64,000 nt of DNA from Chiloscyllium plagiosum (lineage: Eukaryota): assembly GCF_004010195.1 (NCBI RefSeq), contig NC_057718.1, forward strand, positions 80,176,116 through 80,240,115, given 5' to 3'. How positions within the stretch are numbered: position 1 is the stretch's first letter; every line of letters begins with the position of its first letter. Below the pieces are notes generated by a model that saw nothing but the letters and a program-made list of their open reading frames with translations, did not search any database and had not been told where the DNA came from. Of this stretch, positions 16,120-25,107 are shown one piece after another. Position numbers and translations under genes: made by a program.

Positions 16120-16636
16120 AGACAATGGAGACTGCAGATACTGGAGAAATCAGAGTTGAAGAGAAATCAAAGCATGGTAAAGGAAAAGGCACAGCAGGTC
16201 AGGCAGCATCCGAGGAGTAAGAGAGTCAACGTTTTTGACAGGACCCTTCCTCAGGACTGGGGTGGGGGAAGGGGGTGAAGAGATAAATGGGGGTGTGGGG
16301 GGGAGGTGGGTGAGAAGGGGGCATGGGGCTAGAGGAATGTAGCTTTAAATGTAGCTTCTGTCATGATCCTGGCTCATGGTACTACAATTTCTTTAAAAAT
16401 AAATATTGATCCCATTTAATTTCAATGGCCTTCAGTCCTGATCAAGAGGCTCCACCTGTTATAAGAGTTGATAAAGCACAGTGCTGGAAAATGCACAGCA
16501 TCTGAGGAGCAAGACAGTCAATGTTTCAGGCAGGACCCTTCTTCAGGCAAGGGGGAGGGGATGGAGGTTAAGAGATCAATGGGGTAAGGGGGCAGGGCTA
16601 GGGGAAAGGGAGGTGATAGGTGGGCAAAGGTGATAT
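16120..16636 (-). mobile_element. Two Penelope pLTR fragments
   Basis: cacagcaggtcaggcagcatcc...ggacccttcctcagg and a second copy at ~16475-16636. Confidence 0.7.
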
Positions 16637-17774: not shown

Positions 17775-18042
17775 CAGAATTGCTAGAGTGTGGAAAATGA
17801 CCATCTGGCCCATCGAGTCTACATTGACCCTCTGAAGAGTATCCCACTGGGACCCACCCCAACCCATTTAGCATGGCTAAACCAGCTAATCTGCACATCC
17901 TTAGACTGTGGGAGGAAACTGGAACACCTGGTGGAAACCCACACAGACGCGGGGAGAACATGCAAACTCTATATAGTCACCCAAGGATGGAATAAACCCG
18001 GGTCCCTGGCACTATAGCAGCACTGCTAACCACTGTGCCAAT
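17775..18042 (-). mobile_element. HE1-type V-SINE
   Basis: Reverse complement of V-domain ctgcacatcc..gactgtgggaggaaactggaacacctggtggaaacccacacagac. Confidence 0.85.
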
Positions 18043-18469
18043 GACCATTTGTTTGAGCATTTGGTGACAAAGCAAAAGTGCCAACGTCCTGTGAAAAAGA
18101 AACATATGCCATTCATCACTGCCAACTCCATGGGCTGCAGCCCATCACTCTCATTGATATGCAGGAAAGCAGTCTTGAAGAAATCACTAAATCCCTTAAC
18201 ACTTCTATGATACTCATCTTTCCAAAGTGTAACCTGATATTAGAGTACAGAGACAGTAAAGCAAAAGTTCGTACCTCCAACAAGCTTGCAAAAACTGGTA
18301 ACACAGACTCCTGGTGTGAGGTCTTGGCTGCAGTATCCATGGAGGTACTTACAACCAACTAGGTTCACTTCAGAATGCTAAGGCACTGGAACAGAATATT
18401 ATAAAATCTCATTGCAACTTCTCAAAACATTCAGACATAATACAGCAAATTCTCAGCCGGCCTAACAGT

Positions 18470-18720
18470 TGTGTTTATGATATTGATCCAATAATCAATT
18501 GCTCTTCAAGATTGATTATCTTTGTTTGTTAGTTTGTCTAAAACAATAAAATATATTATAAGTTTGGAAGTAAATGTCACAGCAAACCAGTTGATTTCTG
18601 TGTTTGCAGCTTGCAAATCCATACTATATAAACAAGTAAGCAAAGTCGCAATATTGTATATACATAACTCACCAAGTCCTTAAAGGGGAATTCTCTTAAA
18701 GACAAGATACATATTCAACA
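18470..18720 (-). repeat. 3' LTR of the Gypsy element at 18470-21572
   Basis: Aligns with ~21249-21572 (e.g. 18541-18617 vs 21314-21390, about 55/77 identical by manual count); preceded on the minus strand by purine tract GGAAAGCAGAGGCA then TGTTGAAT. Confidence 0.8.
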
Positions 18721-18889
18721 TGCCTCTGCTTTCCAAAAGTAAGATGCTCTGTTGAAAATAACAAGTGAGTCTAGAAAAGTCCCTATTGCACATAGGTAAT
18801 TTGCTGATATATCAAATCTTGTGACTTTGGTGGTGGTGTTGATTTTCATAGTCATCAGTGACACAGTGAGTTGTCTCTGTTTGTGTTGT

Positions 18890-19775
18890 CATTTCTTTTT
18901 CTTTCATTGAATACAGTTGCTGCTTCAGATTTTGCTTTTCCTGATGAGTTACAGCCAAGTTCTATTCCACTGGCTGATCTTTTCCTTAAGCCATTTTAAG
19001 TGGCTTGAATCTTAGCATTTACTGTTTTATTCCTTCAGACTAATTCTATCAAAATTTTAGCCTTCTGTTGGTCCAGTATAGTTTGTTCATTCACCGTCTG
19101 CTCCAATAACTGGACAACTTCTTCAAGTTTTTATTTTTTTTTGTTTTTGTTGAAGTCAGAACTTCAACTTTCACTGCTGTCTCATTTTTTATTTAGTTCC
19201 TTTTATGCCTTGTTTGAGTTATTTCACCAGAGCACCATTGTTGGCATTTATTTCTGAAAGGACTGTCTTATGACTGACTTGTGCCTCCTAGTTATGGGTG
19301 CTATGTATCTCCAGCTATTTTTGTAGGTTTGTCATTTTCTCTAGCATTGCTTTGAGCTCAAGCTCTTATTATGGATCTGCTTCTCCTGATCTGTTTTCCA
19401 TACAAGTTGTTCCAGATGTTCCTCCAAGTTGGAAAGCTTTTCATTCAGTTGATAATACAGGAACTTTGGTTAATTGGCTTTCTTTCTTTTTTTAGTTCTT
19501 CGTTCATCATTATAAGCTGAGCAGAGCTATCTCCTAAAGTTTTCATCATCTCAGAGGTAGTGTGCTAAAGTCTGCATGGGTCTTGTGCTCTTTGTTAAGC
19601 ATTTTTCTCTTCAACTTCTGTTTCGCAGTTCACATCAGAGAGCTGAGATTTTAGCTTCAATAATTCAAAAGAAATTACAGTACTCCGTTCTTCTATCAGA
19701 TTCAATTCTCCACTCGTTTCTTGAATAGCTAGCTGCAGCTTCTGTTGTGTCCCTGATGTCTGTCTGATTTCATGG
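18890..19775 (-). pseudogene. CLIP1: Intronless, decayed fragment of a CLIP1 (CLIP-170)-like coiled-coil, inside an LTR element
   Basis: AIQETSGELNLIEERSTVISFELLKLKSQLSDV, TSEMMKTLGDSSAQLIMMNEELKKER, EEVVQLLEQTVNE, VNAKIQ and QEKQNLKQQLYSMKEKE are colinear with recalled CLIP1 [79 protein letters not shown] and EERSVLNNQLLEMKKRE; several stops and frameshifts. Confidence 0.75.
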
Positions 19776-20920
19776 GTTGTGGCTGGTGCAAGGTCATGCC
19801 ATGCTGTTATGCCCACAAACACTGGTCGAGAAGTTTCTTTGATGTAGAACATCTATGATGTTAGATTGATTGTACTTGCATCCAGCATTATTGATCCTGC
19901 ATATGTAATTGGTGAAACATTGTACATTGAAATGTTCACATTTGTAGATTTTGCCTTTTCTTCCATGTACATTTTAAAATAATACATAGAGATAGTACAT
20001 TGGCAATTTCCCTGTGTCAATCTGAGTAAAAACCGAATAGTCATCAGTTTTCCAAGAACAGATAATTTCAATTTTTGTGAACATTTTAGACAGTATGATG
20101 ATATTGATGCTTTTTTATAAAGATTGATAGTGTGAAATGTGGTATTCACCGCTCTTGGTCTTACTGTGTAGATCAGCAGATTCTGCTTTGTTGATCATTT
20201 CATGTGTATTGCCTCTGGCGAGATACCATTTATTGCAATTGGAAGGTACTCCTTGTGTGTAGTGGGTTTTAGTCAGTGCATAGCTCTTAGCCGCATCAGT
20301 CTTTGCTCCAGTGCACTGCCTGTGCCAATGGTCTTTTCTTCTACTTGCCTTGAAAAATTGATTGAAAGCAGGACATCTCATTGATGTATCCAGAAAATCA
20401 CACCTTCCAAACGTCTTGCTATATTTGGGTGTTTTAATGATTGAGTCAACTGTTGACTTTGTAATTCAAACCTGTAAGCTTTTTCGACCTTTAAGGATTG
20501 CTTTATGATTACATCAATAGTTTTTAAACAATATAAATCTTTGGTTAGTCTGACAAATCTTTTTGGAAAGTTTCTTTAGATAAGAATGTGACTGCTAGCA
20601 AAGCAATTCCTTTTTCTTGGCTCTCAATCCAGAAAAATGTCACAAAATTAGCCCCATATTCTGCAGCTGCACACAAAGTGGTGAATAGTTTCTGTCTAAA
20701 GAGCATAAATTCTAGTCATGAATACAGAAGCTTAATCTCACACTGAATTGCTCTTCTAAAGTAGTCTATATCTTGTGGAGATCTTTTAGCTCTTCAGCTG
20801 TTAGTCCTGAAGTATTAAATCTGACCTTCATTTCCAATCGTTAAGCAAATCTTAAATGGCTTGCTTTCCTGCATCATATAAATCCAGAGCCTGAAATCAT
20901 GGTTCTGATCAGTGCAAAAG
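19776..20920 (-). mobile_element. Decayed Ty3/Gypsy gag and aspartic protease
   Basis: KICLTIGNEG..FNTSGLTAEELKDLHKI*TTLEEQF..LEFMLFRQK (gag); GRCD..RCPAFNQFFKASRRKDHWHRQC (degenerate zinc knuckles); QIDTG/IANVLSL and FYIKETSRPVFVGITAWHDL (protease). Confidence 0.8.
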
Positions 20921-21248
20921 CATATAGTTGGGGCGTCTGCTGTATCCCAATTTACACCAGGAAGTTTTATCAACATTCTGACAATATCTCTTGTTTACCA
21001 TCAATTTGGCACATACCATTGCAATTTGCCTTTATCAAGTTAGTTAAACTAGCCTCCTGATTAAGATTTGTCTGTTTACTAGCAATCTGTATTTTCAATG
21101 CATTCTGATGCTGTTATGAACAAAGAATTTGAGGGTGTCTCATGATTTAAGATGGTTTGACCATATGTTGCACTTGTACATTAACTTGCTAGCTGACTTT
21201 TCAAGCATGATAGACTTTGTCAGCATAATGTTTTCACTGGTATCAGCA

Positions 21249-21572
21249 TATATTTCTGTTAAATAATCAATTGTGCATCAGGAATTGGTTAACTTTGTGC
21301 ATTAGCTTATTTCAAACAATAAAATATATCACAAGTTATAAAGCAGACATTACAACAAACCAACCGCTTTATGTATGTGTAACTTGTAAGCCTTTTGTAG
21401 ATAAAAAAAGTCATAATCCACAGGACACCAGGTTATAGTCCAACAGGTTATTTGAAATCATGAGCTTTCGAAGTGCAGCCCCTTTGTCAGGTGCCGATTG
21501 TTCAGATTGTTGAAAGAAAGGACATAGACTCCTGAAGAATAAATTCTCTTAAAGGCATGATACACATAGACT
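21249..21572 (-). repeat. 5' LTR of the Gypsy element, containing a short pLTR-type insertion (~21405-21495)
   Basis: aataatcaattg..aaacaataaaatatat..ttctcttaaag-catgatac matches 18490-18712. Confidence 0.75.
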
Positions 21573-21984
21573 ATAAGCACACATTAGACAATACACTGAA
21601 AGATGATTTGGTTTGATGGTTGAGACCCTGATATCTTTATCCTCCTTATCATAATTTGAAGCCAAGCTTATGGCCTATTAAGCAATCTCCTCAGATGTTC
21701 TTTTCACTAGTTCCTTGTCTGGCTCACCATGTGCAGAACCCACTAACTCGCAACACAACGAACTTGGAGTTTACATTTCTGTACTGGTACTTGGGTGGAG
21801 TGATCAGTGCTTCTTATGAAGGACTATAAACTGCTCTGAATCTTCTTTCACAAATTCCATGTGTAGGGAATGATTTAAAGAAATAAAAATGAGACACTTA
21901 CAAGCTCTACGATTCAATATGAATTGTCAGGTTGATTGGAAGCACAATTGCTTGTTACTGGAAAAATACAAGTAATAAAGAGTT

Positions 21985-22090
21985 CTCATGGTGCAGTTGT
22001 AATGTCCATACTCTGAGCCAGGAGGTCCAGGTTCAAGTCTCACCTACTCCAATGGAATGTCACAAAACCTCTGAGCAGGTTGATTAGAAA
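21985..22090 (+). mobile_element. Short tRNA-derived SINE; related copy on the minus strand at ~28320-28408
   Basis: tggtgcagttgta (A box) ... ggttcaagtctcac (B box). Confidence 0.55.
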
Positions 22091-23190
22091 ATATTTACAA
22101 GTAATAAGGTCAGTGTTGCCTTGCCTCTGTACCTCTGATGCTGTTTGCATGGTTTTATAATCTGTAAAGTTGATTGCTTAATTTCTCCAAGCTACTAGAT
22201 GTTAGTTCTCCTCCCTAGTCTTGTTTCTCTCCTTTTGGCTTTAAGATCATTTTCCTGCAGAAAAGGTGGGCATTGGGTCTGAGTGGCTACTGCTAAGGGC
22301 ATGTGCAGATGTAAAAAGCGACTTCAGAAAGTGCACATGCAGAAACAGAGAAGTGAATACAACTGGATAAGCCAGTGTTCATTGGACAGAATGTGGCTGG
22401 ACTGCAAATTTATAAAGAAGTCATCAGAGAATTGCATTGTTTTGTGGCTGTTACAGGGGGAAGGTATATGCTGTTTACACTTGGTAAAGGCATCAAGAAA
22501 CAGATGCTGAGAATGAAAATGATCGATGGGTGTGGTGTTCTGTTGTGCTTAATGAAGGTAATTGTGATACAGGGAAGGCCTTGCATATGTGGGTGCACAT
22601 TACTCCTGCTCTATTCATGTCACTGAGCTTTTTGTTGCTTGCATCTAAGTATTACACCCAGTATTGAATACCTCTGCCACTTCTGTCCATGCCTGTTGAA
22701 TATTTTGTTTCTCCTATGAAGCACTTCTGTGGTGTTTCCTCCGGCATTTATAGTGGCCTGTCCCTGCCGCTCCCGGTTGTCAGTTTCAGCTGTCCGCTGT
22801 ACTGGCCGGTATATTGGGTCCAGGTCGATGTGTTTGTTGATGGAGTTTGTGGATGAGTGCCATGCTTCTAGGAATTCCCTGGCTGTTCTTTGTTTGGCTT
22901 GCCCTATAATGGTACTGTTGTCCCAGGATAGCTGGTCATGGCTATATAGGACAAACAGGAAGACAGATAACGATCCGCATCCATGAACATCAACTAGCCA
23001 CAAAACGCCACGACCAGCTATCCTTAGTAGCCACACACGCAGACAACAAGCAACATGAATTCGACTGGGACAACACTACCATTATAGGGCAAGCCAAACA
23101 AAGAACAGCCAGAGAATTCCTAGAAGCATGGCACTCATCCACAAACACCATCAACAAACACATCGACCTGGACCCAATATACAGGCCACT

Positions 23191-23770
23191 NNNNNNNNNN
23201 NNNNNNNNNNNNNNNNNNNNNNNNNNNNNNNNNNNNNNNNNNNNNNNNNNNNNNNNNNNNNNNNNNNNNNNNNNNNNNNNNNNNNNNNNNNNNNNNNNNN
23301 NNNNNNNNNNNNNNNNNNNNNNNNNNNNNNNNNNNNNNNNNNNNNNNNNNNNNNNNNNNNNNNNNNNNNNNNNNNNNNNNNNNNNNNNNNNNNNNNNNNN
23401 NNNNNNNNNNNNNNNNNNNNNNNNNNNNNNNNNNNNNNNNNNNNNNNNNNNNNNNNNNNNNNNNNNNNNNNNNNNNNNNNNNNNNNNNNNNNNNNNNNNN
23501 NNNNNNNNNNNNNNNNNNNNNNNNNNNNNNNNNNNNNNNNNNNNNNNNNNNNNNNNNNNNNNNNNNNNNNNNNNNNNNNNNNNNNNNNNNNNNNNNNNNN
23601 NNNNNNNNNNNNNNNNNNNNNNNNNNNNNNNNNNNNNNNNNNNNNNNNNNNNNNNNNNNNNNNNNNNNNNNNNNNNNNNNNNNNNNNNNNNNNNNNNNNN
23701 NNNNNNNNNNNNNNNNNNNNNNNNNNNNNNNNNNNNNNNNNNNNNNNNNNNNNNNNNNNNNNNNNNNNNN
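23191..23770. other. Assembly gap (N run)
   Basis: Continuous N. Confidence 1.
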
Positions 23771-25068: not shown

Positions 25069-25107
25069 NNNNNNNNNNNNNNNNNNNNNNNNNNNNNNNN
25101 NNNNNNN
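25069..25107. other. Assembly gap (N run)
   Basis: Continuous N. Confidence 1.

Follow-up and report, generated by a model that had tools for sequence, protein, structure and literature searches.

We found that a window of Chiloscyllium plagiosum DNA (the whole stretch analysed: 64,000 nt of the forward strand, assembly GCF_004010195.1, NC_057718.1:80,176,116-80,240,115) harbours, on the minus strand from ~21573 to 18430, a decayed element with two LTRs that carries a rearranged piece of the host gene CLIP1. The element is very probably a single decayed member of an old family of non-autonomous LTR retroelements with Ty3/gypsy-like relatives, the founder of which would have captured the CLIP1 sequence by way of template switching; we put the probability of this reading, taken as a whole, at roughly 85%. 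Along the minus strand the order is: 5' LTR, leader/gag, protease, ~0.9 kb of CLIP1 cargo, a 110-nt tail and, after a purine tract, the 3' LTR (Table 1). Reverse transcriptase (RT), RNase H and integrase are absent from the element; the preliminary description of the window had listed RT, RNase H and the integrase core as missing. A Pfam scan of 28 ORF pieces (8 from the window; 12 from loci L030-L032; 8 from L007, L008 and L032) yielded no gag, protease, RT or integrase model and only weak chance matches, all under the cut-offs, and no pol remnants were seen beside the cargo among the 10 copies examined.

Table 1. Features of the CLIP1-carrying element, in window coordinates and in element order
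Feature	Position	Strand	Remarks
5' LTR, decayed	21221..21573	minus	start taken from the conserved LTR head; end between 21262 and 21221
Very high-copy repeat piece (SINE-like) inside 5' LTR	21404..21520		foreign to the element
Leader + gag, decayed	20195..21235	minus	nucleocapsid with two CCHC knuckle remnants, ~20307-20411
Retropepsin-type protease	19765..20194	minus	DTG at 20007-20015; split by frameshifts; stops a few residues ahead of the cargo
Cargo piece 1	18994..19764	minus	host exons A to G, spliced (CLIP1 residues ~847-1135); same reading frame as the protease
Cargo piece 2	18848..18996	minus	host exon X from its 16th base + exon A, spliced; CLIP1 residues ~809-862
Tail	18736..18847	minus	common to L005 and L006; visible in L005 and L030
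Polypurine tract	18721..18734	minus	purine run adjoins the LTR start in the window copy and 3 other copies
3' LTR	18430..18720	minus	begins TGTTG; end approximate

The host CLIP1 gene is located on contig C25 and encodes the CAP-Gly domain, the coiled coil and the CLIP1 zinc knuckle (CAP_GLY, CLIP1_ZNF); the locus aligns with a named shark CLIP1 in 24 colinear blocks of 77-100% identity, and for one of its exons all database matches (9/9) were CLIP1. Cargo piece 1 matched this gene by blastn in seven separate colinear blocks (26433726 down to 26411574, 70-90% identity), the corresponding seven exons being spread over ~22 kb of the host genome. In the host gene, 0.4 to 6.8 kb separate blocks that are contiguous in the element; there the block ends are bordered by AG and GT, and in the element they are joined base for base. 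Because the exon ends abut exactly, the cargo is demonstrated to derive from spliced CLIP1 mRNA. When the host exons were spliced computationally, piece 1 gave a single alignment of 780 nt (66.8% identity, E 2e-96), and other copies gave single stretches of up to 914 nt, with E down to 3.5e-122. At the protein level, tblastn with the named shark CLIP1 (P0002) recovered 56/95 residues in one frame at 19759-19478 (linked E 1.5e-33) and additional blocks at 19514-19377, 19365-19192, 19127-19041 and 18970-18896; elsewhere in the 64-kb window P0002 found nothing under E 0.3. Only the host locus shows CAP_GLY and CLIP1_ZNF, and the cargo classifies as a CLIP1 fragment rather than as a CLIP1 gene. 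Both the CLIP1 origin and the lack of introns had been proposed in the preliminary description, with a mapping onto the host gene suggested as a check. The origin holds at the DNA level (the block SEMMK..GD.SAQL..MNEELK is present in a host exon) and the mapped cargo crosses the exon junctions exactly. Of the colinear match in five blocks that had been described, the match to CLIP1 stands and the number and order of the blocks do not, the cargo comprising eight host exons in rearranged order.

This rearrangement is evident from the permuted order of the two pieces, the upstream CLIP1 residues coming last. They are joined at a shared heptamer, AAACAGC, which lies within a stretch that is similar at 16/22 positions. 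Microhomology was assessed at this internal cargo-cargo junction alone (7 nt exact), an assessment of the element/cargo junctions needing the sequence of the parent element. Overall the cargo is an internal coiled-coil fragment (~809-1135 of 1437 residues), without 3' UTR and without poly(A) at its end, and the window copy is missing ~50 nt of exon F/G. ORFs of 85, 118, 134 (copy L031) and 145 residues span the protease/cargo junction in four copies; in those of 85, 118 and 145 residues CLIP1 follows the protease in its native frame. A start of the cargo with the end of exon X was considered and dropped, as the residues concerned belong to the end of the protease. In two copies, that of the window and L007, piece 2 reaches its 3' end at spliced-exon position 173-174, with the exon A donor at 175; such a distance of ~2 nt is as compatible with a splice-mediated junction as with a jump. 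Alignments of piece 2 end earlier in L005 (150) and L030 (129). The tail behind piece 2 presumably represents the 3' terminus of the parent element, and the integrase C-terminal-like character given to it in the preliminary description was not confirmed; it showed no significant match to the 200-kb CLIP1 region, to the initial 500 nt of the intron that follows exon A or to the spliced exons. One score, for the tail of copy L030, is unexplained in that comparison.

The two LTRs that had been noted previously do align, in a comparison that had been set beforehand as a check: for 21408-21231 versus 18635-18450, 126 of 188 positions matched, with a score of 60 against 14.8 ± 2.3 in 200 shuffles (z ~20), and a stricter alignment of the pair gave 93/128. 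The heads of the 5' and 3' LTR of the window copy match each other as well. Within the family, the LTR pair of copy L005 aligned at 141/210 positions, the 3' LTRs align between different copies (174/261 positions for the window 3' LTR, 18719-18464, and that of L005), and the sequence of the 5' LTR down to 21221 recurs in the 3' LTR of L007. Comparison with L007 and with the 5' LTR shifted the end of the 3' LTR from 18470, as given in the preliminary description, to ~18430. The purine tract, likewise described before, lies directly 5' of TGTTG, and such a tract plus TGTTG head was present at all four 3' LTR starts inspected, the 3' end of the LTR being placed approximately. Inspection of the window copy by eye revealed neither a primer binding site nor a target-site duplication; a 5-bp duplication would as a rule be erased at ~15% decay per site. 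The first third of the 5' LTR is broken up by the high-copy repeat listed in Table 1: bins 21284-21565 have a word depth of 1.8e4 to 6.2e4, versus ~15 in unique DNA, loose ends occur at 21407, and 21493-21404 is matched at 78-84% by unrelated places in loci L002 and L031. The region surrounding the element is rich in other repeats.

The gag with zinc knuckles and the protease, both reported earlier for this stretch, recur in other copies. The knuckle pair is a decayed CX2CX4HX4C, the pattern of which can be recognised in the translations of 7 copies, and family homology in L030 and L031 extends over 21235-21030 and 20810-19245. The active-site motif of the protease in other copies reads DTG or DSG (L007, L032). 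By blastx the window copy matched the database gag-PR proteins P0011 (2e-5) and P0020 (4e-5), and the C-terminal half of the L003 protease matched residues 389-441 of P0013 (E 4.8e-5). A gag profile recovered 16 proteins at E <= 1e-3 among 1.84 billion; the matches have a double knuckle followed by a DTG protease (best pairwise E 2.7e-18), and one of the 16 is a BRCA2 protein. Another, P0019, contains RVT_1, RT_RNaseH and RT_RNaseH_2 and is related to the gag-PR matches P0013 (6e-20) and P0024 (2.5e-26). Since the RT_RNaseH domains of P0019 are typical of Ty3/gypsy, these sequence relationships point, only indirectly, to a putative membership of the family in that group, to which the preliminary description had assigned the element; an integrase-bearing relative was not obtained. 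A PDB sequence search with the gag profile and the protease ORF gave 0 matches, and the ESM Atlas returned no usable match for the protease ORF and, for the gag ORF, only zf-CCHC clusters at 0.87, which is under the 0.9 level.

That we are dealing with a family rather than with a one-off insertion follows from the protease/CLIP1 junction, which is the same in other copies, as emerged when the junction was searched genome-wide along the lines suggested earlier. A search with a junction-spanning ORF turned up 314 candidates, of which 150 were scored and 130 matched. One match is the host exon, and the others demonstrate the cargo at no fewer than 129 dispersed non-host loci; about 54 of the matches begin upstream of the junction. 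The cargo starts at spliced-exon position 136-139 in 7/10 copies, and the junction between pieces 1 and 2 is identical in all five copies that reach it (the window copy, L004, L005, L007 and L030). Such sharing of junctions between copies is the mark of secondary retroposition of an LTR-mediated retrocopy. The cargo-bearing loci are all ~65-72% identical and rich in stops; copies compared with one another show 64-73% likeness, and the LTR pairs are 67% alike. Compared with the CLIP1 of five sharks the cargo reached sum bits of 1625-1861 (host: 1787), versus 182-468 for teleosts. Because it is equally close to the CLIP1 of distant sharks and to that of its host, the capture is, by these sequence comparisons, ancient and lies deep in cartilaginous-fish history. 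In a second species, too, the insertion and its flanks occupy this locus, as contigs from independent runs show. An autonomous partner was not found in the genome, where all 108 gag and 94 protease matches have open frames of at most 270 residues; locus L032 has gag and protease with nothing recognisable behind them. Word-indexed protein searches with the gag profile ('longer' lengths) and with the protease-plus-cargo ORF ('near' lengths) had 0/4228 and 0/11 candidates scored, respectively.

We propose the following course of events for the origin of the family. In the founder, part of a spliced host CLIP1 mRNA would have taken the place of RT, RNase H and integrase, after CLIP1 mRNA and element RNA had been packaged together in a virus-like particle. 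During minus-strand synthesis the 3' end of the element would have been copied, upon which RT could have switched to a CLIP1 mRNA close to where exon A ends and have read back as far as the beginning of exon X. A second switch, at the short homology, would have led into exon G of a CLIP1 mRNA, which RT would have followed back to exon A before making a last jump to the element RNA just behind the protease. The product would have been a single-frame Gag-protease-coiled-coil fusion that retained the LTRs, the leader and the polypurine tract, and because these were retained, the chimera could have been transcribed, packaged and copied by a partner. Such an autonomous partner, acting in trans, would have brought it to well over a hundred loci, after which the lineage decayed. 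Capture of a host mRNA by template switching into a non-autonomous LTR element had been put forward in the preliminary description, and is supported by the exon junctions and by the LTR pair.

Among the other explanations, a splice-assisted capture along the lines of the classical model for retroviral oncogenes is improbable, even if it is the best of them: an element would have resided in sense orientation in the CLIP1 intron behind exon A, the exon A donor would have been spliced to an acceptor in the 3' part of the element, and template switches would have supplied the remainder. It would account for piece 2 ending so near the exon A donor in two copies (window and L007), as we estimate that a random breakpoint falls so close in ~4% of cases; against it, the alignments of L005 and L030 stop earlier, and the other two cargo junctions are inside exons (19 nt into exon A; from the middle of exon G to 15 nt into exon X), so that template switches are needed in any case. 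We regard as distinctly less probable still a capture at the DNA level, in which a CLIP1 processed pseudogene made by a LINE inserted into a full-length LTR element, pol was deleted and what remained was mobilised. Such genomes commonly show nested insertions and deletions, and the surroundings are indeed repeat-rich, but the cargo is internal to CLIP1 and has neither 3' UTR nor terminal poly(A), is in sense orientation and in frame with the protease, is rearranged at a 7-nt microhomology, and takes the place of pol exactly between protease and tail, with no pol remnants beside it in 10 copies. The idea that nothing was captured (a coiled coil of the element's own that merely resembles CLIP1, exons taken by CLIP1 from the element, or an assembly error) could appeal to the spurious protein matches that coiled coils yield and to the BRCA2 protein among the 16 profile matches, and is refuted by the exon-by-exon match at the DNA level (E down to 1e-122), by abutting exons that are conserved in shark and teleost CLIP1 and are separated by introns in the host and by none in the element, and by junctions that recur at many loci and in the second-species contigs from independent runs.

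Template switching onto a spliced CLIP1 mRNA, the reading that we prefer, leads to the question of what the cargo may have contributed. Leucine zippers are able to replace Gag assembly domains in retroviruses. It is conceivable, though in our opinion improbable, that a dimerising CLIP1 coiled coil behind Gag-protease aided the entry into, or the seeding of, partner particles, or joined protease halves; if so, the coiled coil would have given this parasite of a parasite the advantage by which it reached hundreds of copies.

The family provides exon-level proof for the capture of a host mRNA by an LTR element deep in the history of cartilaginous fish, and it illustrates that a chimera of LTR element and host mRNA can grow into a successful repeat family, beyond a single retrocopy. 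To our knowledge, the gene-carrying LTR chimeras that have been described occur in one to few copies each. The fusion of a cytoskeletal coiled coil to Gag-protease is in addition a natural example of exon shuffling, and its two fixed junctions constitute a datable marker for which any elasmobranch genome can be screened. For annotation it is relevant that more than 100 decayed CLIP1-like coiled-coil fragments, spread over the chromosomes, may seed false 'CLIP1-like' gene models.

Several known systems resemble the CLIP1 family in part. The acutely transforming retroviruses with a v-onc gene carry spliced host coding sequence in place of replication genes, often fused in frame to Gag, and are defective and dependent on a helper. 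The CLIP1 family is similar in that spliced host coding sequence replaces replication genes and is fused in frame to Gag-protease. It differs in that env is lacking and neither an infectious virus nor an effect of the cargo on the host cell is indicated, in its spread through the germ line as a transposon family, and in its cargo, which is a structural coiled coil and not a signalling gene. Mouse MaLR and ETn and plant LARD and TRIM elements consist of LTRs and cis signals, have no polymerase of their own and reach high copy number by amplification in trans. Like these, the CLIP1 elements are non-autonomous LTR elements; unlike theirs, which are non-coding or of unknown origin, the interior of the CLIP1 family can be assigned, exon for exon, to a named host gene.

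For animals, retroposition mediated by LTR elements through template switching has been described (Tan et al. 2016, Genome Res, PMC5131818), in a paper that also names MaLR. The retrocopies treated in its relevant passages, from fly, mosquito, zebrafish, chicken and mammals, are young and occur in single or few copies (PMC5131818). As in the CLIP1 family, they are described there as partial, intron-free copies of a host mRNA between discontinuous LTR-retrotransposon sequence, with junctions at short similarities, a parental frame that is often kept, room for multiple switches and recopying as a non-autonomous element (PMC5131818). The CLIP1 family deviates from the retrocopies in these passages (PMC5131818) by being very old, by its occurrence in a shark, by a cargo that is permuted and joined to itself, and by its presence at at least 129 loci. 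Maize Bs1, as characterised in the same source, is alike in being an LTR element with an interior of host-gene exon pieces; Bs1 is given there as having one to five copies and three parental genes (PMC5131818), whereas the CLIP1 family has more than 100 copies and a single parental gene that was used twice, and retains gag and protease, unlike Bs1. The earlier statement that such a family had not been described thus holds for the CLIP1 family, of which we found no description in the literature, and does not hold for the kind of event, which, going by these passages, is in print for animals (PMC5131818). The capture and multiplication of host coding sequence by a mobile element is well documented here and has precedents; the mechanism is already described, and what is unusual about the CLIP1 family is its copy number.

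The 3.56 Gb of genome that was searched contains one match to the Pfam model CLIP1_ZNF, on contig C25, with a same-strand CAP_GLY match 118 kb upstream of it. One exon of this locus retrieved nine database proteins, 9/9 named CLIP1 (the best two, from carpet sharks, at 96% identity), and one of them, the shark CLIP1 protein P0002 (1437 residues), matched the locus colinearly in 24 blocks of 77-100% identity; on these grounds the locus is the host CLIP1 gene. It spans ~122 kb of the minus strand (C25:26363767-26485983, loci L010-L023), and the 200 kb around the two Pfam matches, 8734 letters of which are masked, were taken for comparison. Alignment of the coiled-coil part of the element to this region (blastn) yielded seven colinear blocks of 70-90% identity, running from 26433726 down to 26411574, i.e. 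over ~22 kb of host DNA. The host blocks end at AG or GT and the same blocks abut base for base in the element. The cargo is CLIP1 and stems from a spliced mRNA, which bears out both the CLIP1 origin and the lack of introns read in the preliminary description; the check proposed there, whether host exon junctions are crossed, shows them crossed at exactly these AG/GT block ends. When the eight matching host exons (X and A-G) were computationally joined and aligned to the family copies, the window copy matched over 780 nt without a break (E 2e-96) and other copies over stretches of up to 914 nt (E 3.5e-122). Residues 849-943 of P0002, encoded by three host exons, matched 19759-19478 in one frame (56/95 identical, linked E 1.5e-33), and elsewhere in the 64-kb window P0002 had no match below E 0.3. 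The doubts raised beforehand, that the coiled coil might be a generic one without the GD(N/S)S(S/A)QL block or that the LTRs might not align, fall away, since the cargo matches CLIP1 exon by exon and the block named beforehand (SEMMK..GD.SAQL..MNEELK) is present in a host CLIP1 exon, and the LTRs do align.

Features of the CLIP1-bearing element in the window
Feature	Window position	Strand
5' repeat unit (5' LTR)	~21573-21221	minus
Broken reading frames, ~1 kb, between 5' repeat unit and protease		minus
Pair of decayed CCHC knuckles, closing the broken frames	~20307-20411	minus
Protease DTG	20007-20015	minus
Heptad-rich coding sequence (cargo), ~0.9 kb	19764-18848	minus
Tail, 110 nt, after cargo		minus
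Purine run, 14 nt	18734-18721	minus
Second repeat unit (3' LTR), head TGTTG	from 18720 to ~18430	minus

The order LTR, gag knuckles, protease, coiled coil, purine tract and LTR was recovered as first noted; the span assigned to it (18470..21572) fell ~40 nt short at the end of the 3' LTR. The two LTRs of the window copy are identical at 126 of 188 aligned positions (score 60 against 14.8 ± 2.3 for 200 shuffles), or at 93/128 under stricter penalties. Their first thirds do not align because the 5' unit is interrupted by a piece of a very high-copy repeat (~21404-21520), for which matches occur at unrelated positions in other loci and the contig word depth exceeds that of the adjoining sequence by a factor of thousands. 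A TGTTG head and a polypurine tract were found at 4/4 of the 3' LTR starts examined. The window copy is badly decayed (five CLIP1 blocks, four frame changes and at least five stops), and no primer binding site, target duplication or exact LTR end was found in it. The 110-nt tail, part of which had been read beforehand as integrase C-terminal-like, had no match in the 200 kb around CLIP1, and none of the relatives recovered bears an integrase. In the copy L030, comparison of the tail behind the second cargo piece with the initial 500 nt of the intron that follows exon A in the host gave a score of 26 (shuffles 13.0 ± 2.1), and the tails of four other copies scored 11-16 against the same 500 nt. 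Very high-copy pieces that look tRNA-like and SINE-like by eye lie at 17900-18040, 21284-21565 and 21989-22100, with a summed contig word depth of 5.8e3 to 2.7e5 in runs of a related species, versus ~15 in neighbouring unique DNA; some contigs link the piece at 17900-18040 to that at ~21425, which places the two in one repeat family. The window also holds N runs (23191-23770 and 25069-25107; masked or assembly gaps) and a direct repeat of 118 nt at 75% identity, 292 nt apart (16204-16321 and 16496-16613).

The retroelement class had to be approached indirectly. Pfam gag, protease or RT models matched 0/28 ORF pieces, PDB and a word-indexed protein search gave no matches, and a protein atlas gave a zf-CCHC lead below threshold. 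The profile A1, made from unaltered gag ORF fragments of seven copies, retrieved 16 of 1.84 billion proteins at E <= 1e-3 (best 1.5e-7). On a Pfam scan 12 of the 16 were without any Pfam family, two had zinc-knuckle hits just below the cut-offs and one, P0019, bore RVT_1, RT_RNaseH and RT_RNaseH_2; another is a BRCA2 protein, which we take as a chance match. In the retrieved sequences a double knuckle of the same kind precedes a DTG protease, and relatedness among these proteins extends from gag across the protease and into RT (P0013-P0019 6e-20, P0019-P0024 2.5e-26). Pairwise, the family copies matched them down to 2.7e-18 (the window copy down to 2e-5), and the C-terminal protease half of one copy (L003) matched P0013 at 4.8e-5. 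Together, the gag/protease kin, the LTR pair, the polypurine tract and the TGTTG head support an LTR retroelement, the nearest recognisable kin of which carry gypsy-type RT and RNase H. The initial Gypsy assignment stands as to LTR retroelement; its gypsy part has indirect support, through the kin (the RT and RNase H of P0019).

All genomic match counts for the family are lower bounds. We recovered at least 43 matches for the coiled-coil DNA (40 scored of 254 candidates), at least 43 for the gag-protease DNA (40 of 185), at least 108 for the gag ORF (150 of 413) and at least 94 for the protease ORF (150 of 212). The 118-residue ORF across the junction had at least 130 (150 of 314), one being a host CLIP1 exon, and about 54 of those listed start upstream of the junction; the genome-wide count suggested as a check comes to at least 129 non-host loci. 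Over long stretches the copies share 64-73% identity with the window copy. In the four that could be traced to the 3' LTR (the window copy, L005, L007 and L030) cargo and tail take up all of the sequence between protease and polypurine tract, so that an RT, RNase H or integrase would not fit in, in agreement with the lack of RT, RNase H and integrase core first noted. Among the gag and protease ORF matches listed no open frame exceeded 270 residues, and no autonomous relative was found among the family matches listed. In L005 (~415-880, element orientation) the cargo lies almost directly behind the 5' LTR, gag and protease being deleted.

The cargo is moreover rearranged. With the spliced exons X and A-G numbered 1 to 1059, the copies contain positions ~136-1012 followed by 16 to ~175 (roughly residues 847-1135, then 809-862, of P0002). 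The second piece crosses the X/A exon junction without intron in 5/5 copies reaching that point, and in the same five the joint between the pieces is identical: it falls within exons G and X, where both share the heptamer AAACAGC in a stretch similar at 16/22 positions; the rearrangement is ancestral to the family. The frame is kept across this joint by position arithmetic, and directly so in L005 and L007. The cargo starts at position 136-139 in 7/10 copies, 19 nt inside exon A and shortly (a few residues) past the last protease strand, and protease and CLIP1 share one frame in ORFs of 85 (window), 118 (L007) and 145 (L008) residues; in L031 a 134-residue ORF likewise spans the junction, its CLIP1 frame being putative.

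In animals, LTR-mediated retroposition yields a part-length, intronless copy of an mRNA, set between discontinuous LTR-element sequences and arising by template switches, possibly multiple, at short similarities inside the particle (as described in Tan et al. 2016, PMC5131818). The CLIP1 element would need three such switches, one internal and two outer; the expected microhomology is seen at the internal one. The proposed capture of host mRNA by template switching agrees with the intron-free cargo and the internal joint. In two copies the second piece ends ~2 nt or less from the donor of exon A, which would be explained equally well if that donor had been spliced to an element within the intron. 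Insertion of a LINE-made CLIP1 pseudogene into an element is unlikely, because the cargo, an internal fragment, lacks a poly(A) tail, lies in frame and takes the exact place of pol.

In two copies the paired LTRs are identical at 67% of positions, a divergence that at shark substitution rates would correspond, loosely, to some hundreds of millions of years; the copies diverge from one another just as far. Summed tblastn scores of ten copies against CLIP1 were 1787 for the host, 1778 and 1820 for two carpet sharks, 1625 for zebra shark, 1861 for catshark and 1845 for sawshark, and far lower (182-468) for teleosts. The cargo thus shows no particular affinity to the lineage of the host, and the scores fit a capture within cartilaginous fishes, before the split of these shark lineages. 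Contigs from two runs of two studies, under a second species label, tile the window insertion with both flanks (17964-22040) at ~2.5% difference (27 other letters and 20 gap letters in one contig of 1089), and a third label gave near-identical pieces at 19288-19486 and 20946-21247; the window copy is therefore older than the divergence of these species, and an assembly artefact is ruled out by the independent runs. Low-depth contigs of a same-species run, the RNA label of which is a guess and not readable as transcription, differ by 0-1 letters each from 18746-18965, 19174-19704, 20290-20576 and 20651-20857.

Open-access full text yielded no account of an element carrying CLIP1, or of a shark family of this kind, in line with the preliminary description. 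The kind of event is already known: the element shares the structure of LTR-mediated retroposition described by Tan et al. 2016 (PMC5131818), where such retrocopies frequently preserve the frame of the parent gene and can, as a non-autonomous element, be recopied. That the coiled coil aided the spread of the family seems quite improbable. The case is distinguished by its age, by the use of one mRNA twice in permuted order, by the in-frame fusion to Gag-protease and by its scale, at least 129 loci versus the one to five copies of maize Bs1 (as cited in Tan et al. 2016, PMC5131818).
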